From: Acidobacteriota bacterium
GTDB taxonomy: Bacteria > Acidobacteriota > Polarisedimenticolia > Gp22-AA2
Reading direction: 5' to 3'
NCBI GenBank assembly: GCA_036477555.1
Contig: JAZGDH010000079.1
Span: 1-27,033, forward strand
DNA: 27,033 bases
A model generated the notes under the pieces. The model saw only the letters and a list, made by a program, of their open reading frames with translations, was not told the DNA's origin and searched no databases. Positions 5,023 to 24,667 of the stretch are shown here, piece by piece. The translations under genes and the position numbers were made by a program. The first letter of the stretch is position 1, and each line of letters opens with the position of its first letter.

Positions 5023-5811
5023 TCAAGATCCTTCCTGCCCATCCCCCGCCCCGTCCCGTTCGGTGTCGGGGCCCCGCGGACGCCCGAAGACCCGGGCCAC
5101 CAGAATCCCGACTAGGTAGAGGAGGATCATCGGCCCGGCGAACACGCACTGTGTCACGATATCCGGCGTCGGGGTGATGATCGCCGCGATGATGAAAATT
5201 ATCAGAACGGCGTACTTAAACTTCCGCCATAGAAAGCCAGGCGTGACGAGGCCAAGCCGCGCCAGAAAATAGATGACGGTCGGCAGCTCGAATACGATCG
5301 CCAGCCCCAGAATGATTCTGCTCTCGAAGCCGAACAGATTACTCACCCGCAGCGCAGGCTCGAAATCCTCGCCGACCTGCAGCAGGAACCGGCCCGCCGT
5401 AGGGAACCCGACGTAATAGCCGAATGCCCCCCCCGCGAGAAAGAAGACCGTCGAGAACAGAATGAACGGCAGTGCGTAGTGCCGTTCGCGTGGGTAGAGC
5501 CCGGGGGAAATGAACTTCCACGCCTGGTAAAATATGAAGGGTGCAGAAATAAACAGCGCGACGACGAAGGCCACTCTCATATAAAGCAGGAACGGCTCGG
5601 TGATGTCGATGAAGACCGGGCGATGGTCCCCCAGGAACGGCTGGATCGGGACGAGGAAAAACGTCAGGAGGCGCCTGGCGTTGGTCAGCGCCAGCAGGAA
5701 TGCGACACCAACACTGAGGAGTGACAGAAGGAGGCGCTTCCGGAGCTCTTCGAGATGCTCCAGAAACCCCATCGTGGGAAGGTTACTGCGATTCTTTTCC
5801 GGTTTCGGCAT
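5023..5811 (-). CDS. tatC: Twin-arginine translocase subunit TatC
   Basis: [34 protein letters not shown] and IITPTPD, plus about six hydrophobic segments. Confidence 0.97.
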
Positions 5812-6058
5812 CGGGGGCTGCGGGCGTCCCGTCCTTCTCTTCGGTCGGATCGGGCGGTTTCTCGTCGGAGCGCTTCGGCTTCTCCATGCGGGACACCTCG
5901 GTGTCGAGCGTCGTTCTCAGGTCGGTGGCGGCCCGGCGGAATTCTCCCAGTCCGCGGCCGATCATCCGGCCCAGCTCGGGCAGTTTTCGGGGCCCGAAGA
6001 TGAGGAGCGCCACCACGAAGATGACGATCAACTCGGGCCCGCCGATCGATCCGAACAT
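5783..6058 (-). CDS. tatA: Twin-arginine translocase TatA/TatB-family subunit
   Basis: [42 protein letters not shown]; strong GGAGGAGG RBS before the ATG at 6058. TatA versus TatB cannot be resolved from this sequence alone. Confidence 0.85.
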
Positions 6059-6084
6059 GCTCTGCCTCCTCCGCGCCGGCACGA

Positions 6085-6093
6085 ATCTTAGCA
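6085..6093 (-). promoter_or_regulatory. Putative extended -10 promoter (TGc TAAGAT) for the tat operon
   Basis: The minus strand reads TGCTAAGAT about 27 nt upstream of the tatA start. Confidence 0.4.
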
Positions 6094-6168
6094 CCTTCGG
6101 CTCTCGCGGGGGTTGCGGTCCAGGCTCCCGGGCGCCGGTTTCCTGACGTTTTCCACCTGCCGCTTTCC

Positions 6169-6197
6169 TTTACAGGACACTCCCCGGACACTATAAT
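6169..6197 (+). promoter_or_regulatory. Sigma70-type promoter for the S41 peptidase
   Basis: TTTACA (6169-6174), 17 nt spacer, TATAAT (6192-6197). Confidence 0.7.
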
Positions 6198-6229
6198 TTC
6201 ATCACGTCACGCAAGAGAGGGGACTCCGA

Positions 6230-7801
6230 GTGAAACATCGTTCGCTTGTGGGGGGGATCGCTTTCATCGTCGCCGGCGCCGTCATCGGCGGAATGTTCGT
6301 CGGTCGCGCGGAATCCGGGACCGACACTTCCCCTGACAGGCTCGGCACCTATACCCAGCTCGTGAGTCTCGTTCAGGCCCGGGCGGCGGACGAGGTCGAC
6401 CCGCGGGTTGCCATCGAGGGGTCGATCCGCGGCATGCTCCGCTCTCTCGACCCGCACTCCAACTACCTGGATCCCGAAGATTACCGGGGCATGCTCGAGG
6501 AGCAGCACGGATCCTTCTCCGGCCTCGGAATCGTCATCTCGAAACCTTCGCTCGACAAGCCTCTCACCGTGATCTCCCCACTCGAGGAGACCCCGGCCTG
6601 GAGAGCAGGGATCCGGGCGGGAGATGTCATCTCTCAAATCGAAGGGGTCGACACGCTCGACATGGACATCGACGACGCCCTGAGGCTCCTCAAGGGTCCC
6701 CGAGGCACCCGGGTCTCGATCACGGTGACGCGTCCCGGTTACGACGAGGTGCTGCACTTCACCATCACCCGCGACAAGATCAAGACCCGCAGCATCCGGC
6801 AGGCGTTTCTCGTCCACCCGGGCACCGGCTACATCAGGATTGAGAACTTCACGCGGACCACCGATCGCGAGCTGGAGCAGAGGCTCCGGGATCTTCGCGC
6901 AGCGGGCATGGAGCGCCTGATCCTCGACCTGAGGCGCAATCCGGGCGGGCTGCTGGAGCAGGCGGTGAGGGTGTCCGATCGGTTCCTGAAGAAGAGCCAG
7001 ATGATCGTCTACACGCGCGGCCGGATCAGAGGCTCGGACCAGGAGTTCAGATCCACCGGCGAGGGAGTGCGTAACGAGCTGCCGCTGGTCGTGCTGGTGG
7101 ATAAGTACAGCGCCAGCGCCTCGGAAATTGTCGCCGGCGCGCTTCAGGACCATGATCGGGCCCTGATCGTCGGGAACACAACCTGGGGCAAGGGACTGGT
7201 GCAGACCGTCTACCCGCTCAGCCACGACGCCGCACTGGCTCTGACGACCGCGCGCTACTACACACCAAGCGGCCGTCTCATTCAGCGCGACTACCATTCG
7301 CTCGAGGACTACCTCAGCTACGAGGAGAACCTGGACGAGGCGATCACACCCAGCAGCGAGGTGCGTCGCACCGACGGTGGTCGAACCGTGTATGGTGGCG
7401 GCGGCATCCGACCCGACGTGATCGTGCCGATTCCGGAGAGATCCCGGTTCATCGATCGGCTCGAGCGCGGCCAGATGTTCTTCCATTTCGCCATCCACTA
7501 CAACACGAAGCGCAAGCTGATCCCGCGCGGCTTCGAGGTGACTGACGCCACCATCGAGGAGTTCAAACGGTTCCTGACCGCGCGCAAATTCGAATGGACC
7601 GATGAACAGATCATCGAAACCCGCCAGCGCCTCTCGAACGAGATCGAGGAGGCGATCGCCTCCGCACTGTGGGGACTCGAGGCCGGATACAAGGTCTACG
7701 CGCGAACGGATCCCCAGATCCAGAAGGCCCTCGAGCTCTTCCCCGAGGCGCGTCAGCTCGCCGAACTCTCCGACGGGCCGGAGACGGTGACCCCGCGCTG
7801 A
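6230..7801 (+). CDS. ctpA: S41 family C-terminal processing peptidase with PDZ domain (CtpA/Prc-like), N-terminal signal or anchor
   Basis: LDPHSNY, GSFSGLGI, GIRAGDVI, LILDLRRNPGGLL, catalytic SASASEIVAGAL and TWGKGLVQ, TARYYTPSGRLIQ. Confidence 0.93.
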   Translation: MKHRSLVGGIAFIVAGAVIGGMFVGRAESGTDTSPDRLGTYTQLVSLVQARAADEVDPRVAIEGSIRGMLRSLDPHSNYLDPEDYRGMLEEQHGSFSGLGIVISKPSLDKPLTVISPLEETPAWRAGIRAGDVISQIEGVDTLDMDIDDALRLLKGPRGTRVSITVTRPGYDEVLHFTITRDKIKTRSIRQAFLVHPGTGYIRIENFTRTTDRELEQRLRDLRAAGMERLILDLRRNPGGLLEQAVRVSDRFLKKSQMIVYTRGRIRGSDQEFRSTGEGVRNELPLVVLVDKYSASASEIVAGALQDHDRALIVGNTTWGKGLVQTVYPLSHDAALALTTARYYTPSGRLIQRDYHSLEDYLSYEENLDEAITPSSEVRRTDGGRTVYGGGGIRPDVIVPIPERSRFIDRLERGQMFFHFAIHYNTKRKLIPRGFEVTDATIEEFKRFLTARKFEWTDEQIIETRQRLSNEIEEAIASALWGLEAGYKVYARTDPQIQKALELFPEARQLAELSDGPETVTPR

Positions 7802-7852
7802 CGCATTCTTCCGCCTCGACCATTCGCACTCCGTGATCTATTCCGTGATTCT

Positions 7853-8512
7853 TCAGTTGGCGCTGGTCAGCAACCGGCAGGTGTCGGAATACGAACGCCT
7901 GTGGAAGGCGCAAAGCTCGTTGCGGCGCTCGGGAACCGTCATACCGTCGAGCAGCCGCGCGTGTCGATCCGCCAGACCGGCCGCTTCCCGGTAACGCTCC
8001 GCGCTCTCACCCTTTTCCCCGGAGTATTTCCCGAACAGATGATGGCGGGCCCAGAGGCGCAGGCCCTCCGGCAGGCGTGTCCGGCCGGTCTGCCGACCCA
8101 GGAGATGGAGGACGACGAGATATTTAGTCAGGTTGGCGTGATGCTCGAGCTCCAGCAGACTCACCGGGCGCCTCTCCGCCACCCGTCCCGCCAGGGTCAG
8201 CAGATGGTCGAGTTCCTCGATAAGCACCGAGAACTCGTCGATGTTCACGTCGCCGAGCCCGATCAATGGATTAAATTGCTCGAGATGCCGGACCAGCGCA
8301 TCCGGATAATAGATGGCCAGGCGAATCGAATCATGCTCCTGTCGCACCATCATCCGCGCACCGGAGGAGCGTTCGTGCTGCCCGTCTCCGTAGAGAACCT
8401 CGTATCCCTCGTCGCCGATCAGAAAAGGGCCGATGTCGTGAATCACCGGCCGCATTCCGTAGCTCCGTTCGATGATCGATTTCAGTACGACGATCAGGGG
8501 GGCAGCGTTCAT
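7853..8512 (-). CDS. Uncharacterised protein with EELDH...SLLELEHHA motif (possible zincin-like fold)
   Basis: 219 aa ORF with normal composition. Its ATG overlaps the stop of the upstream ATPase (ATGA at 8509-8512). Function unknown. Confidence 0.75.
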   Translation of the reverse strand: MNAAPLIVVLKSIIERSYGMRPVIHDIGPFLIGDEGYEVLYGDGQHERSSGARMMVRQEHDSIRLAIYYPDALVRHLEQFNPLIGLGDVNIDEFSVLIEELDHLLTLAGRVAERRPVSLLELEHHANLTKYLVVLHLLGRQTGRTRLPEGLRLWARHHLFGKYSGEKGESAERYREAAGLADRHARLLDGMTVPERRNELCAFHRRSYSDTCRLLTSAN

Positions 8513-10365
8513 GGAGTCTCGTCCTCGTACACGAAGCCGCCTCCGCTCTCGTCGACGGTAATCCGCCGCGGTCCGTGACGCAGGCGCGCATGCCGTTGCA
8601 CCTCCAGGCGCAGGGCCACTTCATCGACCGGTCGCTCGCCGCGCCGGGCCAGCCGGATCTGCCGGATCAGCTGTCGCGTCGCGTCGGGCATCGGCCCCGT
8701 TCCGTGCTGCAGGCGGCGGCTGACTTCGACGTTGCAGATCCGATCGGTCTCGGCGGTGAGGTGCCGCGCCCCATGTTCGAGACTGAACCCGCGGTCGAGA
8801 ATGGCGGCCCGTGCCGCCGGCGTGACTTCGAGCTCGATTCCGTGGCGGTCTCGATAGCGGGTCGCAATGCGGGCGATCTCCTGATCGAGAATGCGTCCGG
8901 CCGAAGAACGGGACAGCGACGAGAAGTGAATCACCTTGAGCCGGTTGAGGAACTCGGGAGGAAGCCCGCGCGTCATGGTGCGTGCCGCGGCGGCCCGACC
9001 CGGAGCCCGCGTCCCCCTGCCTCCGTACCCGATCGCCTCGCCTCGCATCGACTCTTCGCTGTAACCGAGATTCGATGTGTAGGCGATCAGGGTGGCGGGA
9101 AAACGGAGCAGCCGGCCCTTGTTATCCATCGTCGATCCTCGATCCATGATCGACAGGAAGAAACGGGGCAGCTGCGGGTGCGCCTTTTCCACCTCATCCA
9201 CCAGCACGAACGAGAGCGGCGACATCCGCGCCTTCTCGTGAAACTCCGACAGGAGGCCCTCCTCATCGCTGCGGATGAAGCCTCGAGTTGATCCTTTCAG
9301 CTCGCTGACGTCGGAGGGATGGGTGTACTGCGGGCCTTCCAGCACGAGGAAAGGTATTTCGGTCTCCCACTCCTCCTCCAGCAGCCGGACGAGGGTCTCG
9401 ATCAGATAGTTCTTACCCACCCCGGTCGGGCCGACGAGAAGGTAGCTCTGCGGTCGTGGCCGCGGTCGTGTTCCCAGGGCGGAGACCAGCAGATCGTCAC
9501 AGAGACTGTCGACGGCGGCATCCTGATCGACCACCTCGTCCTTCAAGCGCTCGCGCAGCGCGGCGACGTCGAGCGACGAAAGAAGGATCTGGCGCTCGTA
9601 GCGGGTCAGCCTCTCACCACGTTCGAGATCGGACATGTCGTCGAGGACTCCGTCGGTGGATCCTTCCGCCGCGGCCTCCCGTGGAGCCTTCGATTCTGCC
9701 GCCGTCGTCGGCGTCAGGGCGGTCGGCTTCGGCAATTCAACTTCGCGCGTCAGGCGGGAGGCTGGAGCCTGCTCGGGAGGGAGCGACGGCAGGGCCGGCT
9801 CCCACCCGCGGAAAGCTTGAAGGACCTGAGCATAGACCCGGAAGCGGGACGCGCACTGGCGGAGAAAGATCACCTCTTCATCGATCGGCAGCCGTTCCAT
9901 GAGATTGTGATCGTAAAAGTCGCGCAGCGTCCGATCCTGAGCTAGCAGTGAAAGCACCCGGCTGGCGAGACCGTAAGAGCGTGGGCCGAGGTCGGAGAGA
10001 TCAATGCCGCGGAAGATCGTCTTGCCAGCCAGTCCGACGTCGTAGAGGCATTTGTCGCCGTAGGTTTTCAGCAGATCGGGGACGCTCCAGGCCCGCACCA
10101 TCTGCGCTTCGTCTCTGGCGGCGGTGTCTCGTGGGTCGATCAGCACCGACGGCTGCCGCTCCCCCGCAAAGATGCGGTCGAGCGTTGCCGAGTCGTAGCC
10201 CTCGGTCAGCAGGAGCGAGCTGCGCATGAGGATTTCGAGCAGATACTTCATCTCCAGCTCGTCGAGCCCCGGATCGGCCAGCGCACCCTCGGCGAGACTC
10301 CGGAGCCGAGATTCAATCTCCTCGGGTGAAAGCGGCTCTGCGAATGGTGGTGTGGTGGAACTCAT
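8509..10365 (-). CDS. Single-module Clp/Hsp100 (D2-type) AAA+ ATPase fused to an unknown N-terminal domain
   Basis: Walker A GPTGVGKN (9409-9432), Walker B VDEVEKAH, sensor-1 TSN, PEFLNR, HGAR and a ClpB-D2-small-like C-terminus. There is no D1 module or Clp-N repeat. GAGGG RBS before the ATG at 10365. Confidence 0.85.
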
Positions 10366-10499: not shown

Positions 10500-10528
10500 T
10501 TGACATCTAACCCCAATTTTTCTACTAT
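10500..10528 (+). promoter_or_regulatory. Sigma70/sigmaA promoter of groES-groEL
   Basis: TTGACA (10500-10505), 17 nt spacer, TACTAT (10523-10528). Confidence 0.85.
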
Positions 10529-10554
10529 TAGCACTCGCCTTGGCAGAGTGCTAA
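10528..10554. promoter_or_regulatory. CIRCE element (HrcA operator), perfect consensus
   Basis: TTAGCACTC-gccttggca-GAGTGCTAA, an exact 9-N9-9 match directly after the -10 box of groESL. Confidence 0.97.
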
Positions 10555-10658: not shown

Positions 10659-12660
<2,002 letters not shown>

Positions 12661-15407: not shown

Positions 15408-16520
15408 TCAGAGGGGGGAGTCGTTGCGCGCCGCGACGCCTTCGAGCACCCGCTGCTGGATGCGCAGCCAGTCGTCCTTGGGAACCTTCAGGAAAACCTT
15501 CACGATCTCGGGATCGAACTGCGTGCCGCTGTACTTCTCGATCTCCGCGCGCGCCGTTTCGTAGGGAAGTGCCTTGCGGTAGGGCCGATCGGATGTCATG
15601 GCGTCGAGGGTGTCGGCGACGCAGAAGATCCGCGCTCCGAGCGGGATCTCCTCCCCCTTGAGGTTGCGTGGATAGCCGGTTCCGTCAAAGCGCTCCTGGT
15701 GGCTCAGCACGATCTGGCGGGAGTTCTCCAGGAAGTTGATGCCGTGGAGGATTCGGTAACCGATCTCGGGGTGCTTACGCATCTCGACCCACTCCTCGGG
15801 CGTGAGCTTCCCCGGCTTGCGCAGGATGGCGTCCGGCACGCCGATCTTGCCGAAGTCGTGCAGGAGCGCCCCGCGGTAAATCTCGGTCAGCTCGGGGCCC
15901 TCGATTCCCAGCCGCTGGGCGATGTGCGACGTGTAGGCGGCGACGCGCAGTGAATGCCCCATGGTCTCGCTGTCGCGCGTGTCGAGCGCCGTCGCCAGCG
16001 CCTCGAGGGTCGTCTGGTACGCGTTCGCGATCCGCTGGTAGAGCTCCTCGACCTCATCATTCTTGCGCTGCAACTCGGCGGTCCGCTCCTGGACTCTGGT
16101 CTCGAGGTGGCGTTGATATTCGCGATTTTCCAGTATGAGGCGGCGTTTCTCGAGCGCGCGCTCGACGGTGATCCGCACTTCAGCCAGGTTGAACGGTTTG
16201 GTCAGATAGTCGTTCGCTCCGAGTCGGATTGAGTTGATTGCCGTATCGACATCCACCACACCGGTCAGCATGATCACTTCGGTATCGGGATGGATCTTCT
16301 TGATTTCCTGAAGGAGCGCGACGCCGTCCATCTCAGGCATGTCGATATCGCTGACCACCAGATTGAATCCGTTGCCCCGCATTTTATCCAGTGCCTCGAT
16401 GCCGTCGCACGCGATCTCACACTCATATCCGCTTGCGCCGAGCCCCTCCGACAGCACATCGCGGATGGCCTGCTCGTCGTCGACCACCAGGATTCGGCTC
16501 GGCTTTTCCATGTTCTCCAT
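15408..16520 (-). CDS. Response regulator with REC and HD-GYP domains (RpfG-like c-di-GMP phosphodiesterase)
   Basis: REC: VVDDE, SDIDMPEMDG, TG, TKPF. Coiled-coil linker. HD-GYP: ETMGH, LLHDFGK, KHPEIG, HQERFDGTGYP, ADTLDAMTSDRPYRKA. Confidence 0.93.
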   Translation of the reverse strand: MENMEKPSRILVVDDEQAIRDVLSEGLGASGYECEIACDGIEALDKMRGNGFNLVVSDIDMPEMDGVALLQEIKKIHPDTEVIMLTGVVDVDTAINSIRLGANDYLTKPFNLAEVRITVERALEKRRLILENREYQRHLETRVQERTAELQRKNDEVEELYQRIANAYQTTLEALATALDTRDSETMGHSLRVAAYTSHIAQRLGIEGPELTEIYRGALLHDFGKIGVPDAILRKPGKLTPEEWVEMRKHPEIGYRILHGINFLENSRQIVLSHQERFDGTGYPRNLKGEEIPLGARIFCVADTLDAMTSDRPYRKALPYETARAEIEKYSGTQFDPEIVKVFLKVPKDDWLRIQQRVLEGVAARNDSPL

Positions 16521-16667: not shown

Positions 16668-19379
16668 TCAGTTTTGAGATCGGTGCAGGGGTTTCATGTC
16701 GAGCCAGTTCGGGCCCGCCTTCAGATCGACGACGAGAGGGACGTCGAGGGGCCGAACCTTCGCCATCACCTCGCGTACGGTCGCCGCGATCCCCTCCAGA
16801 TTCCCTTCGGGGACCTCGAGAACAAGTTCGTCGTGCACCTGGAGAATCATCCGGGCCTTCGAGCCGTCCGCGACCAGCCGCCTGTGCAGGGCGACCATTG
16901 CCTCCTTGATGATGTCCGCGGCCGTCCCCTGAATCGTCGTGTTCACCGCAGCCCGAATCGCCTGCTGGCGAGCCACGCGGTTGGCCCCCTTGATCTCCGG
17001 GAAGTAACGGATCCTGCGCAGGAGCGTACGGACGCGGCCCTCGCTCTCCGCAAGCGCCACGGTCGCATCGATGTATGCCTTCACCTTCGGGAAGCGGTCG
17101 AAGTACTCCGCGATGAAACGGGTCGCCTCCTTGAATGGCATCCCCTGCTCCCGGGCCAGCCGGTGTGGCCCCATGCCGTAGATGATGCCGAAATTGACCG
17201 CTTTCGCCCGGCGTCGCATCTCATCGGTGACCAGGTCGCGATGCACCCCGAAGATCTCTGATGCGGTGCGGCGATGAATGTCCTCGCCGTCGTGGAAGGC
17301 GCGCTGCATCGCCTGATCACCGCACAGATGAGCCAGCACGCGGAGCTCGATCTGCGAGTAGTCCGCGGAGAGCAATACACATCCTGGGATGGGGACGAAA
17401 GCCCTCCGGATCTGCCGCCCCTGCTCGGTCCGGATCGGAATGTTCTGAAGATTGGGATCGCTGCTGCTCAGCCGTCCAGTCGCGGCAACGGTCTGGTTGA
17501 ACGTCGAGTGAACGCGTCCGGTGTCGGAGTGGACGAGTCCGGGAAGCGTATCGACATAGGTCGACTTCAGCTTTTGCAGGCTCCGGTACTCCAGGATCTT
17601 CCGTGGGAGTTCATGGGAGAGCGACAGATCCTCGAGGACTTCGACACCTGTCGAGAACGAGCGCGTCTTCTGGGTCTTTTTTCCGGGCCGCAGCCCCAGC
17701 TTCCCGAAAAGCACCTCCCCGAGCTGTTTGGGGGAGTTGATGTTGAACGCACCCCCCGCCAGAGAGTGGATTGCCGCCGTCAGGGTGGCGAGCTCTTCCT
17801 CCCAGCGCCTGGACAGTCCGCCCAGAAAATCACGATCGATGCCGACGCCGTGCAGCTCCATCTCGGCGAGCACGGAGGCGAGCGGCAGCTCGAGATCGAC
17901 GAGCAGTGAGGTCAGACCGTCCGCCTCGAGGCCGGCCTCGAGTCGATCCACGATCGCCATCACGGCGGCTGCGCGCGCGCAGGCGACTGCGGCGACCCGA
18001 TCGACTGCGATCCCGTTGAGAGGCACGGCCCGCGCTCCGGTACCCTGAAGCGACGCAAGGGTCGGAACGCTCAGCCCGGCGATGTCCTGCGCCACCGTCT
18101 CCAGCGTGTGGCTTCGCCGCGACGGATTGAGAAGATAGCTGGCGATCATGGTGTCGAATCCGAACTCGGCCACCCGGATCCCCCTCCGCGTCAGGAGAAC
18201 TCTGTCGCTCTTCACATCGTGCCCCAGGAGCCGCACTTCGCCGGTCAGCAACGGCCCGAGCCGATCGAGCGCCACATTCTCCGGTATTTGTGCTGGGGCG
18301 CCCGGCGCCTGGTGCGCGAGCGGGATGTAACAGGGCTCGGATCCGTCCGGACCCGAGAGAGCGACACCGACGATCCCGGCGCGTACCGGCTCGGCGTGAT
18401 CGCGCAGGACGTGGATGGCGCACGGTCCCCGCCCCGAGAGGCGCTCGATCGCGCCCTCGAGCTCCGCCGTGGTCAGGATGACCGTATGGCCTCCCCCCGA
18501 AGGCACGAGCGGGGCCGTGAACTCGCTGGCCAGCGAATCGAACTCGAGATCCAGAAACAGCGCACGCGCCGCGGAATCGTCGGGGCGCTCCACCAGGAGC
18601 GCCGAAGGCTCGAGCGCTATCGGGACGTCGAGACGAATCGTTGCGAGTTCACGACTTAACCGTGCGGAGTCGGCGTGGTTCTGGAGCCCCTCACGATAGC
18701 TCTTCCGTTGAACCGTGTCTGCCCGGCTCAGCAGGGTTTCGAGATCGCCGTACCGGCGGATCAGATCGCGCGCACCCTTGTCCCCGATGCCCGGGACGCC
18801 CGGGATGTTGTCCGAGGAGTCCCCGGCCAGCGCCAGGACGTCCCGCACCTGCTCCGGACGGACGCCGAAGAGGGTTTCCACACCCTCCTCGTCCAGCAGT
18901 AGATCCTTGATGGGGTTATAGACGAGCACTCCGCCTCCGACCAGCTGAAGGAGATCCTTGTCGGATGCGACGATGACGACCGGCCTTCCCTCGCGTCTGC
19001 CCCGCTCAGCGAGGGTGCCAATCAGGTCGTCGGCCTCGTAGCCGGCCATCTCCACCATCGGCACTCCGAGAACCCGGCAGACCTGCTTGACGTGAGGAAT
19101 CTGGGCCACCAGATCAGCGGGCGGCTCGGGGCGATTGGCCTTGTAGTCGGCATAGGCCTCGTGCCGGAAAGTCGGCCCCGCCAGATCGAATGCGACGGCG
19201 AGCAGACGCGGTTGCCGGTCGCGCAGCAACTTGCGCAGCATCGTCGTGAAGCCGTAAACGGCGTTAGTCGGAACTCCCTTGCTGGTGCGAAGAGCGCGGA
19301 TGGCAAAAAACGCACGAAAGAGATTGCTCGTCCCGTCGACGAGGAACAGGGTGTTCTCCGGGTCCGTGCGGGAGGGCAT
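16668..19379 (-). CDS. polA: DNA polymerase I
   Basis: 5' nuclease motifs (LVDGTSNLFRAFFA, EADDLIG, SDKDL, GDSSDNIPGVPGIG). Polymerase motifs: TGRLSSSDPNLQNIP, DYSQIELR, RRRAKAVNFGIIYG, QVHDEL. GAGGAGG RBS before the ATG at 19379. Confidence 0.98.
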   Translation of the reverse strand: MPSRTDPENTLFLVDGTSNLFRAFFAIRALRTSKGVPTNAVYGFTTMLRKLLRDRQPRLLAVAFDLAGPTFRHEAYADYKANRPEPPADLVAQIPHVKQVCRVLGVPMVEMAGYEADDLIGTLAERGRREGRPVVIVASDKDLLQLVGGGVLVYNPIKDLLLDEEGVETLFGVRPEQVRDVLALAGDSSDNIPGVPGIGDKGARDLIRRYGDLETLLSRADTVQRKSYREGLQNHADSARLSRELATIRLDVPIALEPSALLVERPDDSAARALFLDLEFDSLASEFTAPLVPSGGGHTVILTTAELEGAIERLSGRGPCAIHVLRDHAEPVRAGIVGVALSGPDGSEPCYIPLAHQAPGAPAQIPENVALDRLGPLLTGEVRLLGHDVKSDRVLLTRRGIRVAEFGFDTMIASYLLNPSRRSHTLETVAQDIAGLSVPTLASLQGTGARAVPLNGIAVDRVAAVACARAAAVMAIVDRLEAGLEADGLTSLLVDLELPLASVLAEMELHGVGIDRDFLGGLSRRWEEELATLTAAIHSLAGGAFNINSPKQLGEVLFGKLGLRPGKKTQKTRSFSTGVEVLEDLSLSHELPRKILEYRSLQKLKSTYVDTLPGLVHSDTGRVHSTFNQTVAATGRLSSSDPNLQNIPIRTEQGRQIRRAFVPIPGCVLLSADYSQIELRVLAHLCGDQAMQRAFHDGEDIHRRTASEIFGVHRDLVTDEMRRRAKAVNFGIIYGMGPHRLAREQGMPFKEATRFIAEYFDRFPKVKAYIDATVALAESEGRVRTLLRRIRYFPEIKGANRVARQQAIRAAVNTTIQGTAADIIKEAMVALHRRLVADGSKARMILQVHDELVLEVPEGNLEGIAATVREVMAKVRPLDVPLVVDLKAGPNWLDMKPLHRSQN

Positions 19380-19580
19380 TCCCGGACCTCCTCTTTCAGT
19401 CGAGGCCGACAGCGTGCCCGGCGGCACGTCGCGCTCCCGGCCACGTTCCTGACGCGTCCCCCGGCAGCGCGCAGCATCGTCACTCTGCGTTCAGTAACAC
19501 GGCCCGCTCCGCTGACGACGCACCGCAATCCCCTCAGATCGAAAATCAGGGGCTGCGGTCTCATGACCACGGACCGGTCT

Positions 19581-20870
19581 TCAACCCCTCGGCGCGGTGC
19601 CCGAACCGGGCGTGTCCTGTCGGGATCGGAGCCAGGGATAGAACGGAAACCTGCCGCACAGCTGCCGCACCCGATCGCGGATGTCGGATTCTTTCTTTTC
19701 GTCCGCCTCCCCTTCGAGCGCTTCGAGGATCCACGCCGCGATTCGTCGCATCTCCTCGGGACCCATCCCCCGGGTCGTGACGGTCGGTGTGCCGATTCGG
19801 ACTCCGCTGCAGACCATCGGCTTTTCGGGATCGAACGGTATGGTGTTCTTGTTCAGAACGATTCCGACCCGCTCCAGCCGCCCTTCGACCTCCACACCGG
19901 TCAGCTTCCGCGGTCTGAGATCGACGAGGAAGAGGTGCGTGTCAGTTCCGCCGGAGACGATGCGCAATCCGCCCTGGGTGAGACCGGCGGCGAGGACGGA
20001 AGCATTCTCAATGGTCCGTTGCTGATCGGCTCGGAACGCGTCGCTCATCGCCTCCTTGAAGGCGACGGCCTTGGCCGCGATCATGTGCATCAGGGGCCCT
20101 CCCTGGGTGCCCGGGAACACGGCGCTGTCGATCACCTTCTTGAAGCGGTCCCTGCACAGAATGAGAGCTCCCCTCGGCCCGCGCAACGTCTTGTGCGTGG
20201 TGGTCGTGACGAAGTCGGCATGCGGCACAGGATTCGGATGAAGCCCGGCCGCGATGAGCCCGGCGACATGAGCGATATCGGCGAGCACCAGAGCCTCCAC
20301 CTCATTGGCGATTCGCCTGATCCGCTCGTAATCGATGACCCTCGCGTAGGCGCTGGCGCCGACCACGATCATCTTCGGATGGTGCTCCCGCGCAAGCGCT
20401 TCGAGCGCGTCGTAGTCGAGTTGCTCTGTCTCTCGATTGACCCCGTAGGGCACAACGTGAAAATACCGCCCCGAGAAATTGATCGGATGGCCGTGGGTGA
20501 GATGCCCGCCGTGGGAGAGATCCATACCCATGATGGTGTCGCCCGGCTTGAGTGAAGCGAGGTACACGGACATGTTGGCCTGCGAGCCGGAGTGCGACTG
20601 GACGTTCGCGTGCTCCGCACCGAACAATTTGAGAGCTCGCTCGATCGCTAGTCGCTCGACCGTATCGCTGTGCTCGCAACCGCCGTAGTAACGCCGGCCC
20701 GGATATCCCTCGGCGTACTTGTTGGTGAACACCGAGCCCATCGCTTCGAGAACGGCGCGCGATGCGGAGTTCTCGGACGCGATGAGAACAAGCGTCCCTT
20801 CCTGGCGTTCGACCTCGGCTTTGATGGCGTCCGCGACTTCCGGATCGATTTCTCTCACTGCCTGCAGCAC
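19581..20870 (-). CDS. glyA: Serine hydroxymethyltransferase
   Basis: [41 protein letters not shown] and [18 protein letters not shown] 5 nt before the GTG at 20870. Confidence 0.98.
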
Positions 20871-21030
20871 GTCATCCTCCTCATCGGTTCCTCCCTGTCC
20901 AGTGATGCCCGACGACCATTTCGACCGGATCAAACCATATCCCGCATGCTGACGTCGCGCACCCCCGGGAGAGGCGAGAAGACGGCATGCTATCATGCGC
21001 CGCACCAGGCGGCGCGTCGAGGGGACCTGC

Positions 21031-21882
21031 GTGGAATCTCGTGATGACTTGCATTTCGTCGAGCGGGGCGAGAGCAACCGACCGACCCTGCTCTTTCTGC
21101 ATGGGATCACCGGCTCCGGCCGTTACTGGGATCGCAAGGTTCGCGATCTCGCCGCGGACTATCACCTGGTTCTTCCCGATCTTCCGGGATTCGGATTGTC
21201 GCCCAAGCCACATGTCGAGTACACGATGGATCTGTTCCGCGACAGCATTCGGAGCTTCATCGAACGCCGCGGACTGGCAATGCGCCCGCTCGTCATCGTC
21301 GGACACTCGCTCGGCAGCCTGATCGCCCTCGAATATGCGGCCCGGTACGGTGACCACCTGCAGCGCATGATCCTCCTCAGCCTCCCGCGCTTCACCAACC
21401 CTGCGATCGCGCATGAAGTCTTCTGGCGCGGATCGCCTCATTACCGTCGCCTGCTCAACGAGCACTCGTTGAAGGAGACGATCGCGCAGATAAAGCGGAC
21501 CGGCCTGGAACTGACCCTGCGCTACCTGTTCCGTTTTCCATGGACGGTTCTGATCGACAGCCACAAGTTCACCATCAAGTCGCTCACATCCACACTGGAA
21601 CACTGCCTTCTTTCCTATCAGGTGGATCGGGTGCTTCCCTCCGTGCCACCGATTCCCACCCTGCTGATCCACGGAGAGCAGGACTCCGTCGCTCCCCTCG
21701 CCCACATCAGACACCTGCCTGATGACTACCCGCAGATGCGACTACGGACGATCGCGGGGACCGGCCACCACCTGTTCTTGACCCACACGCAGCACAGCCT
21801 GGACCTCATCCATGGCTTTCTCAATGAGACCAGCGCCCACCTACCCAGGGCCCCTGCCCGTGCCGGATTTGAGAAAATTTGA
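21031..21882 (+). CDS. Alpha/beta-fold hydrolase
   Basis: [14 protein letters not shown], nucleophile elbow GHSLG, GEQD (Asp) and GTGHH (His). Start likely the GTG at 21031 after GAGGGG. Confidence 0.88.
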
Positions 21883-22030: not shown

Positions 22031-24667
22031 GTGAAACTCGAAAAAATGACCGTCAAATCGCAGGAGGCTCTCCAGGCCTCCCGGTCGAAAGCGGATGAGC
22101 ACGGGCACCCGGAGATCACGCCCGAACATCTTTTCGACGCCCTGCTCTCCCAGGAGGGAGGGATCGTGCCGATCCTCCTGCACCGGATCGGCGCCGACGT
22201 CGAGGCGTTGAGGCGCACATCCCGCGAGGGACTGGAATCCGCTCCCCGCGTGGAGGGAGGAGCCACGCCACAGATCGGCCGGGCGCTCGTCACGGTCCTC
22301 GAAGCGGCCGAGCGCAGGGCCGAAACCTTTCATGACGACTTCGTCTCTGCCGAGCACCTGCTCCTTGCGCTGATCGAGGGACGCAATCCTGCCGCCGAAC
22401 TGCTGAAGAAAGCCGGCGTTCGACCCGCGCTTCTTCTCGAGGCGTTGAAGTCGATCCGGGGCTCCCAGCGCGTCACGTCTCAGAACCCCGAAAATTCTTT
22501 CCAGGCTCTCGAAAAGTACGCCCGCAATCTCACCGACCTGGCCCGGCGCGGGAAGCTCGATCCGGTGATCGGCCGGGACGAGGAGATCCAGCGGGTCATC
22601 CAGGCGCTCTCACGCCGCACCAAGAACAACCCGGTGTTGATCGGAGAGCCCGGGGTCGGCAAGACGGCAATCGTGGAGGGGCTTGCCCGTCGAATCGTCG
22701 ACGGCGACGTCCCGGAGAGTCTCAAGAGCAAGGAGATCGTCGCCCTCGATCTCGGCGCTCTCATCGCCGGCGCAAAGTACCGCGGAGAGTTCGAAGATCG
22801 ATTGAAAGCTCTTCTTCGGGAGGTCGAGCAGGGAGAAGGCCGGTACGTTCTCTTCATCGATGAGATCCACACCCTGGTCGGGGCCGGCGCGGCCGAGGGG
22901 GCGGTGGACGCCGCCAACATGCTGAAGCCGGCCCTCGCGCGCGGTGATCTGAAATGCGTCGGCGCGACCACACTCAACGAATACCGGAAACATATCGAGA
23001 AGGACGCCGCTCTGGAACGCCGGTTCCAGCCGGTTCTGGTCGGCGAGCCGGGACTCGATGACACGATCGCGATCCTTCGGGGACTCAAGGAACGATACGA
23101 GGTGCACCACGGCGTGAGGATTCAGGATGCCGCCCTGATCGCAGCCGCCACACTTTCCCAGCGCTACATCAGCGATCGTTTCCTGCCCGATAAAGCGATC
23201 GATCTGATGGACGAGGCGGCTTCCCGCCTGCGGATCGAGATCGATTCGATGCCCCGCGACATCGACGTCCTCGCACGTCGTTCGACCCGGCTGGCGATCG
23301 AACAGAAGGCCCTGGAGAAGGAGACGGGCGCCGCGAGCCGCGTGCGACGGACGGAGATACGCGGTGAACTGGCCCACCTGCGTGAAGAGATCAACGGGCT
23401 GAAAGCCCAATGGAGCTCCGAGAAAAGATTCATCGACGAGATCCGCTCGGTGAAGGAACAGATCGAACAATCCCGGACGCAGGCCGAACAGGCGGAGAAA
23501 GAGGGCGATCTCGCCCGCGCCGCGGAGCAGCGTTACGGACATCTCGCGGCGCTCGAGAAGAACCTAGAGGCGACGAACGAGCGCCTGCGCCAGATCCAGG
23601 CCGACGGTCACCCGATGCTGAAGGAAGAGGTCGATGAGGAGGAGATCGCCGCCATCGTCTCTCGCTGGACCGGCATACCGGTGAGCAAGATGCTGGAGGG
23701 AGAGCTCGATCGACTTCTTCACATGGAGAAGCGGCTTGGCCGTCGGGTCGTCGGGCAGGAGGAGGCAGTCGGGTTTGTCAGTAACGCGGTGCGCCGCGCG
23801 CGCGCCGGCCTGGCCGATCCCGATCGCCCTACCGGGTCGTTCCTCTTCATGGGACCGACCGGCGTCGGAAAGACCGAGCTGGCCAAGGCGCTCGCCGAGT
23901 TTCTCTTCGACGACGAACGGGCGATGATTCGTCTCGACATGTCGGAGTACATGGAGAAGCACAGCGTCGCGCGCCTGATCGGCGCCCCCCCCGGTTACGT
24001 GGGACACGACGAGGGCGGCCAGCTGACCGAGGCGATCAGAAGGCGCCCCTACGCGGTTCTCCTGTTCGACGAGATCGAGAAAGCGCATCCGGATGTGTTC
24101 AACGCTCTTCTGCAGATTCTCGACGACGGGAGACTGACCGACGGACGCGGGCGCCTCGTCGATTTCAAGAATACGCTGATCGTCATGACCTCGAACCTCG
24201 CCGGGCCCCTGATCCAGTCCTGGGGCGGGAACGATCGGGATGGACTGCGTGCTCGCGTCGAGGCGGAGCTGAAGGAATCTTTTCGTCCGGAATTTCTCAA
24301 CAGGCTCGATGAAGTGGTCCTGTTCAACCCTCTCGGCCCCGCGGAGCTCCGCCGGGTGGTCGACATCCAGGCGTCCCGCCTGATCCGGCTGATGCGGGAC
24401 CGCGGCATCACGCTGGAGATCACCCCTCGACTGCGTGATCATCTGGCCAAGGTGGGGTACGATCCGGAGTACGGCGCGCGCCCCCTCAAACGGAAGCTGC
24501 AGCGGCTGGTCCTCGATCCGCTGGCGCGGCAGATGCTGGAGGGGCGCTTCCGTCCGGATCGGACGGTCCGTGCCGATCTTGACGACACGGCGGACCAAGT
24601 ATGCTTCGAGATGGTCGCCGCACCTGTGCCGACCACCGAAACCGAGCCGGCCGGCGTGCGTGTCTGA
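22031..24667 (+). CDS. clpB: ATP-dependent disaggregase ClpB
   Basis: Clp-N domain, D1 ([23 protein letters not shown]), coiled-coil M domain (AAEQRYG), D2 ([31 protein letters not shown]). No IGF loop. Confidence 0.97.

Follow-up and report, generated by a model that had tools for sequence, protein, structure and literature searches.

Few kinds of unfoldase are known to feed ClpP, namely ClpX, ClpA, ClpC, ClpE and, as proposed recently, ClpIa. A docking loop is the accepted marker by which such ClpP partners are told apart from ClpB-type enzymes, which are reported to be without it (PMC10149685). Here we analyze a two-gene operon of an acidobacterium from marine sediment, encoded in a window (the whole stretch of DNA that was analyzed) of 27,033 nucleotides (nt), which comprises positions 1–27,033 of the forward strand of contig JAZGDH010000079.1 (Acidobacteriota bacterium; Polarisedimenticolia; Gp22-AA2; assembly GCA_036477555.1). 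Gene 1 encodes one Clp D2-type AAA+ ring behind an N-domain of no named family, and gene 2 encodes a partner with a predicted gluzincin fold. A tripeptide of gene 1, Ile-Gly-Tyr or in some homologues Ile-Gly-Phe (IG[YF]), lies in the alignment column of the docking loop of the ClpX, ClpA and ClpC-like proteins of the same genome and is absent from its ClpB, so that our best reading of gene 1 is a single-ring ClpP partner.

Architecture of the ATPase and its candidate ClpP-docking loop

The operon and the parts of its two proteins, with lengths in amino acids (aa), are as follows.

10431–10404, minus strand: promoter-like TTGATC-N16-TATAAT, 38 nt before the start of gene 1 (consensus scan, 10/12 matches)
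8509–10365, minus strand: gene 1, 618 aa, open reading frame with translation
9796–10365, minus strand: N-domain, aa 1–190, helical, of no named family (alignments A2 and A4)
9616–9795, minus strand: Pro/Ala-rich linker, about aa 191–250, a gap-rich, unconserved block of alignment A2 whose length varies among homologues
9409–9432, minus strand: Walker A, GPTGVGKN, with Asn for the usual Thr/Ser
9268–9288, minus strand: pore-1 loop, T-R-G-F-I-R-S, aligned with the G-Y-V-G loop of ClpA, ClpB and ClpC; F363 invariant
9193–9210, minus strand: Walker B, FVLVDE (D390, E391), invariant
9025–9033, minus strand: I445-G446-Y447, candidate ClpP-docking tripeptide, IGF in homologues P0155 and G003
8941–8943, minus strand: Arg finger R475 in PEFLNR, invariant, aligned with PEF(I/L)NR of Clp D2 modules
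8764–8766, minus strand: sensor-2 Arg R534 in GAR, invariant
8512–8916, minus strand: D2-small domain (Pfam ClpB_D2-small), with an insertion of about 45 aa
7853–8512, minus strand: gene 2, 219 aa, a predicted gluzincin-fold protein of an unnamed family (the B-family)
8204–8218, minus strand: E99-E100-L-D-H103 of gene 2, in the place of HExxH
8135–8152, minus strand: E121-L-E123-H-H-A126 of gene 2, with E123 20 residues past H103

The original prediction, made from the sequence without database searches, had described two genes joined by an ATGA overlap and served by their own promoter. The overlap is indeed present (tcat at 8509–8512 on the plus strand, which reads ATGA on the minus strand and contains both the stop codon of gene 1 and the start codon of gene 2), and the TTGATC-N16-TATAAT site was recovered as a promoter-like sequence; such sites are pattern matches only, and the scan of the region gave two of them against 0.6 expected. 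The proposed domain order of gene 1, an N-domain of its own, a Pro/Ala linker and a single Clp D2-type module, likewise held. Pfam detected AAA_2 at aa 307–478 (94.8 bits, cut-off 27, E 7.7e-27) and ClpB_D2-small at aa 484–538 (38.7 bits, cut-off 21.9, E 1e-9), and returned no match for aa 1–250. The highest NCBIfam scores were for ClpA (145 bits), ClpV (134) and ClpB (130), against cut-offs of 885–1232 (993 for ClpA and 1232 for ClpB). Because gene 1 scores far under every equivalog cut-off, we regard it as a D2-type module that is a member of no named equivalog; it has one AAA+ ring and no Clp_N, and so also lacks what defines the two-ring ClpA, ClpC and ClpB equivalogs.

Most AAA+ motifs of gene 1 are intact. 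The Walker B residues D390 and E391, the sensor-1 residue N432, R475, R534 and the pore-loop F363 are all invariant in 24 homologues and align with their counterparts in ClpA, ClpB and ClpC. The Asn of Walker A is invariant in the same 24 homologues; the P-loop Lys is kept, and the motif thus departs from the canonical GxxGxGK[ST]. TorsinA bears the same GxxxxGKN variant, and torsins lack an Arg finger (PMC5628414). Gene 1 keeps its Arg finger, unlike torsins, and also has the sensor-2 GAR, and a Pfam Torsin match was weak (E 0.0011) and confined to one homologue, from family f10. Torsins are not known to have an aromatic pore loop, which gene 1 has. That a bacterial family of the Clp D2 type combines a GKN Walker A with a retained Arg finger is notable in itself. 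Seen against the Clp paralogues of the same genome, the D2-small insertion (about aa 556–600) is basic and helical, and precedes a terminal beta-hairpin, ITVD..GGxFVY.

The closest known counterparts of the ring are the D2 modules of ClpA and ClpC. Gene 1 finds its best matches in the ClpA model and in ClpC and Hsp104 chains of the PDB (E ~1e-32), and shares with these rings the Walker B, sensor 1, Arg finger, GAR sensor 2, aromatic pore loop and D2-small domain, and, in the equivalent loop, a tripeptide of the form [ILMV]-G-[FLY]. Unlike ClpA and ClpC, however, it lacks D1, Clp_N and the M-domain, carries an unrelated N-domain on a long linker, and differs in its Walker A, its mostly Tyr tripeptide, the D2-small insertion and its sub-cut-off scores. 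ClpX, a single-ring enzyme that works with ClpP and whose N-domain binds substrates or adaptors, resembles gene 1 as proposed here, and it too has an IGF-type loop. Gene 1, in contrast, belongs to another AAA+ lineage (27 bits against the NCBIfam ClpX model, whose cut-off is 359) and has no match to the zinc-ribbon domain that forms the ClpX N-domain.

The N-domain was covered by no family in Pfam, NCBIfam or PADLOC. It carries three invariant motifs, GDKCLYDxG, LGxRxY and F..Q...RF (alignments A2 and A4). Fold searches of the AlphaFold DB clusters and the Atlas with its AlphaFold2 model, and with the Atlas's own model, gave nothing significant.

ClpP partners of the Clp type carry an [LIV]-G-[FL]-type tripeptide in a surface loop that follows sensor 1 and precedes the Arg finger, and gene 1 has such a tripeptide at this position, with a non-canonical Tyr. 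By HMMER, its 'eaIGYgg' aligned with 'kyVGFn' of Bacillus subtilis ClpC. In a MAFFT alignment, the same column held MGF in the genome's own ClpX, IGF in its ClpA, MGF in its ClpC-like protein and IGY in gene 1, as well as IGY in homologue G022 and IGF in P0155 and G003; the genome's own ClpB had no tripeptide in that column. The paralogues were identified by NCBIfam (ClpX above cut-off; a ClpA fragment at 918 bits; the ClpC-like protein as a two-ring fragment; ClpB at 1306 bits, above cut-off). Within the gene 1 family, the Ile and Gly are invariant, the third residue is Tyr or Phe, and the flanks are variable. A ClpP gene is present in the genome, beside those of ClpX and Lon. The invariant IG[YF] at the docking position thus lends sequence support to the first model of the original prediction, in which gene 1 would be a single-ring ClpP-partner unfoldase.

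This tripeptide also bears on a different view of gene 1, raised in the original prediction as well, which we consider unlikely: that it is a ClpP-independent remodeller or disaggregase, like ClpB, Skd3 or ClpG, that extracts or recycles proteins, perhaps the complex of the N-domain and gene 2. Human Skd3/CLPB is likewise built as one Clp D2-type ring behind an unrelated N-domain, and Skd3 is among the PDB matches of gene 1; furthermore, the torsin-like Walker A suggests a regulated, low basal ATPase activity, and the operon adjoins groESL. Skd3/CLPB and the torsins are eukaryotic organellar proteins, whereas gene 1 is bacterial, and neither Skd3 nor the torsins are known to have a ClpP-docking loop. 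The conserved IG[YF], missing from the ClpB of this genome, argues against a remodeller, since ClpB-type enzymes are reported to be without the loop (PMC10149685).

Fold and metal-type residues of gene 2

No Pfam, NCBIfam or PADLOC model matched gene 2, and it belongs to no peptidase family by sequence; the view that the locus corresponds to no named system agrees with this result and with that for the N-domain. A profile search of 1.84 billion representatives returned 1047 clusters at E <= 0.001, which puts the family at ~1000 clusters when counted at 50% identity. The AlphaFold2 model, made with 32 homologues, was confident (predicted local distance difference test score, pLDDT, 89; predicted template modelling score, pTM, 0.88). 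Foldseek found no match for it in the PDB at E <= 0.001, and in the AlphaFold DB clusters it gave weak rows with zincin names (DA1, SprT, IrrE and M48; E 0.01–0.1). By VIA-align, a method independent of Foldseek, a search of 48,161 chains gave a top 40 made up almost entirely of gluzincin catalytic domains. On the basis of the VIA-align search, the modelled gene 2 has the gluzincin (thermolysin-like) catalytic fold, in line with the zincin-like character assigned to it originally.

The EExxH...ExxA pattern reported before is present as E99-E100-L-D-H103 and E123-H-H-A126, and both segments are invariant in 32 close homologues. Across 71 diverse members of the family, E99 is kept in 70 and H103 and E123 in all, and position 100, which corresponds to the catalytic Glu of HExxH, is Glu in 37 and Gly in 34. 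This position separates two subfamilies, EE[LIV][DN]H, to which gene 2 belongs, and EG[VI]SH; in the subfamily that pairs with the ATPase, E100 is invariant. In gluzincins, the Glu that serves as third ligand is expected ~18–20 residues after the second His, and the 20 residues between H103 and E123 equal the spacing in thermolysin. Gene 2 thus has its candidate third-ligand Glu at the expected distance and EELDH in place of HExxH. As E99, H103 and E123 are kept throughout the family and position 100 is either Glu or Gly, a Glu-His-Glu metal site is plausible across the family, and canonical zincin catalysis is not. For gene 2 itself, the missing canonical HExxH makes peptidase activity doubtful. 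The EExxH variant of the zincin motif is of interest in its own right. A parallel, in chemistry only, is found in the ZIP8 and ZIP14 transporters, where EEXXH in place of HEXXH is believed to broaden metal specificity (PMC5661630).

Compared with the gluzincin metallopeptidases (M1 aminopeptidases, thermolysin M4 and M3), gene 2 therefore has its metal-type triad in register with HExxH...E, but differs in its EExxH, in the Gly that occupies the catalytic Glu position in half of the wider family, and in its lack of membership of any of these families at the sequence level. These observations also bear on the earlier suggestion of a split machine analogous to FtsH, in which gene 2 would be an active metallopeptidase that degrades or clips polypeptides from the gene 1 ring, and which would be compatible with ClpP docking. 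As in FtsH, a zincin-type component is coupled to an AAA+ ATPase, and the gluzincin fold, the thermolysin-like spacing and the invariance of E100 in the ATPase-paired subfamily would fit such a machine. However, the first zinc ligand is Glu rather than His, we found no described zincin peptidase with EExxH in the literature, no peptidase family matches gene 2 by sequence, and the Gly in 34 of the 71 members means that catalysis is not family-wide. The arrangement differs too: gene 2 forms a chain of its own, its gene follows that of the ATPase, and it is probably bound by the ATPase's N-terminal domain, so that the partner would be tethered on the entry side, unlike the protease domain of FtsH. 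The fold that the suggestion called for was thus recovered, the absence of a canonical HExxH weakens the rest, and we regard a peptidase machine of this kind as improbable.

Distribution of the operon and of stand-alone A-B pairs

The other features of the window that are considered here are the following.

10500–10554, plus strand: groES promoter-like TTGACA-N17-TACTAT with CIRCE (controlling inverted repeat of chaperone expression), context outside the module
10528–10554, plus strand: perfect CIRCE inverted repeat (HrcA operator), TTAGCACTC-N9-GAGTGCTAA
10659–10946, plus strand: groES, divergent from gene 1
11005–12660, plus strand: groEL, divergent from gene 1
6230–7801, plus strand: PDZ/S41 protease, convergent on gene 2
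22031–24667, plus strand: full-length ClpB, 12 kb from the module
15408–16520, minus strand: response regulator with a receiver domain fused to HD-GYP-type HD_5, a likely cyclic di-GMP phosphodiesterase
16668–19427, minus strand: DNA polymerase I, an ordinary core gene
19581–21110, minus strand: serine hydroxymethyltransferase, an ordinary core gene

The coordinates and strands agree with the description of the operon as back-to-back with groESL and convergent with the S41 protease. The CIRCE had no chance match in 100 shuffles; it lies directly next to the -10 hexamer of the promoter-like site of groES and ~100 bp from the divergent promoter-like site of gene 1. The groESL genes, ClpB and the new Clp-type ATPase all lie within the one window. 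In a sediment metatranscriptome library, one contig of 191 nt was identical to gene 1 at 8699–8889 and little else of the operon was represented, which is too little to claim that the operon is transcribed. In the same library groES-groEL was far more densely covered, but by contigs of many organisms.

We surveyed 201 genomes of the phylum for gene 2. It is present in the genome of the window, in all 16 other sampled genomes of its class, which source labels on homologues give as Candidatus Polarisedimenticolia, and in both genomes of family f10, and was not found in the remaining 182. Wherever the flank could be read, the gene for the N-domain-AAA+ fusion lies directly upstream, so that the two genes co-occur as had been anticipated. 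Long open frames of 783–1110 aa around some gene 2 homologues were considered as fusions of gene 1 and gene 2 and rejected as off-frame stretches typical of high-GC DNA; at these loci, the two genes stay separate with the 4-nt overlap. At the loci of the class whose flanks were read, the gene order is LolA, groEL-groES, the divergent gene 1-gene 2, the convergent S41 protease and TatA-TatC. The f10 genomes keep the divergent groEL, but their downstream genes differ and the S41 protease is not adjacent. We therefore read the S41 neighbor as synteny, whereas the link to groESL, kept in the class and in f10 despite different downstream genes, exceeds class-level synteny. That two separate lineages keep the operon opposite groESL is suggestive of a function in protein quality control. 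An anti-phage defence or other accessory system with the AAA+ protein as effector or sensor, to which a weak match of the AAA core to the PADLOC candidate system protein PDC-M37B (E 2.4e-16, 120/390 positions) might point, is highly improbable and was rejected, since the operon is in every sampled genome of the class, at the same locus by its core genes where flanks were read and unlike a mobile defence island, and since gene 2, the N-domain and the A-family described below have no PADLOC match.

The original prediction had suggested that the two non-ATPase domains occur elsewhere as adjacent stand-alone genes. For gene 2 this is correct: in eight independent lineages, a relative (B) immediately follows an unnamed open reading frame of 208–288 aa (A), often with a 4-nt overlap. 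The lineages are a Verrucomicrobiota metagenome-assembled genome (MAG; L003), a second Verrucomicrobiota genome (L046), a Cytophagia MAG (L039) and the metagenome contigs L006, L007, L010, L041 and L043. The stand-alone B proteins match the gene 2 profile at E 1e-17 to 1e-50, and are thus clear homologues that directly follow their partner gene, as gene 2 does. At these loci A carries no fused AAA+ module, nor is one consistently nearby; many of the stand-alone B proteins read EGxSH, and many A proteins bear an extra C-terminal helical tail. The pair is patchy in Verrucomicrobiota, where B was found in 2 of 151 genomes. At the L003 locus (5692–9782), the pair is followed on the opposite strand by an operon of RDD, SpoIIM-like, DUF58 and MoxR (AAA_3) ATPase genes, which was not seen at the other A-B loci. 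One solo B gene was seen (L009:952–1671, GCA_016188575.1; E 4e-46 to the profile), with no A or AAA+ fusion within 950 bp upstream. At all the other loci read, A or the N-domain fusion precedes B, in equal position and with equal coupling.

The A-family comprises at least 6513 proteins, many labelled Steroidobacteraceae, and has no Pfam, NCBIfam or PADLOC model. Three members (P0311, P0329 and P0407) are labelled 'heat shock protein HspQ' by the Joint Genome Institute, a label that looks unfounded because there was no Pfam match among the A-family proteins scanned.

The similarity between A and the N-domain of gene 1 is weak, though collinear. BLASTP gave no alignment of the N-domain with three stand-alone A proteins, and language-model look-alikes of the N-domain and of one A protein showed no link between the two. 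By hhalign, the N-domain aligned with the A-family at E 0.22 when the A alignment was narrow, at E 0.011 (score 25.2, 136 columns) when it was diverse, and at E 0.0056, over about 137 collinear columns, when both sides were enlarged. Each time, the same three motifs aligned in order, GDxxL(F/Y)xxG, (L/M)GxxSYxxAS and LxxxAxxFxxxxxxL. Column shuffling of the A alignment, repeated 460 times, gave scores of 13.4 on average and 22.5 at most, all below the real value. The N-domain similarity is thus suggestive, with hhalign E of 0.006–0.01, and the equivalent position of the two before B leads us to rate homology between the N-domain and the A-family as likely.

Proposed mechanism and its implications

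From the established architecture, motifs, gene 2 fold, conservation and co-occurrence, we propose that gene 1 is a single-ring, ClpP-docking unfoldase whose tethered N-domain would keep gene 2 in place as a subunit dedicated to selecting or processing substrates, a reading to which we give an even chance. This bacterium would then have, in the operon, a fourth ClpP-dependent unfoldase system. Gene 1 would probably form a single hexameric ring of the ClpA/ClpC-D2 type, through which substrates would be threaded by the aromatic pore loop (GFIR), and the ring would dock on ClpP via its IG[YF] loops. The N-domain, on its long flexible linker, would be the fused counterpart of stand-alone A, a protein of ~210–250 aa whose gene, in other phyla, always comes immediately before that of a gene 2 relative, and may hold gene 2. 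Gene 2, with its predicted gluzincin fold and a Glu-His-Glu triad that may bind metal, would be placed at the entry side of the ring, where it could select or process substrates.

Several observations weigh against this proposal. The third residue of the tripeptide is mostly Tyr, compared to the canonical Phe or Leu. With ClpX, ClpA and a ClpC-like protein already encoded in the genome, there is no obvious need for an additional ClpP partner. In its Walker A, gene 1 has the Asn that, according to work cited in PMC5628414, lowered the activity of ClpB when engineered in place of Thr/Ser. For the N-domain, the AlphaFold2 model on its own folded poorly (mean pLDDT of only 55), and the hhalign E to the A-family falls short of the usual significance; when blocks of eight columns were shuffled so that local motifs stayed intact, 9 of 300 runs scored at least as high as the real alignment. 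A complex prediction of the N-domain (alignment A4) with gene 2 (alignment A1) scored 0.00, a value that says nothing for or against binding. Finally, the linkage to groESL could be inherited synteny.

A broader and speculative reading, in which we place little confidence, would take A-B as a widespread metal-dependent two-protein module whose A component became fused to a Clp D2 ring in one lineage of acidobacteria. The result would be a ClpP protease with a zincin-fold subunit at its entry port, which binds substrates during threading or clips a modification or tag from them. Such a layout would be analogous to that of Rpn11 above the ATPase ring of the proteasome. If it is true, the fusion would be the first functional clue, pointing to protein turnover, for thousands of unnamed A-B pairs.

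We found no description of this module in the literature. If the proposed ClpP-docking unfoldase is real, a single-ring enzyme derived from the D2 module of ClpA or ClpC, equipped with an N-domain of its own and obligately paired with a zincin-fold protein, would represent a new architecture and a new means of substrate selection. The fusion would link two large unnamed families, of at least 6500 proteins and ~1000 clusters at 50% identity, to ATP-dependent proteolysis. It thereby offers a testable hypothesis for the pairs of 'hypothetical proteins' found in Proteobacteria, Verrucomicrobiota and Bacteroidota and, by Atlas taxon labels, in Myxococcota and Gemmatimonadota.

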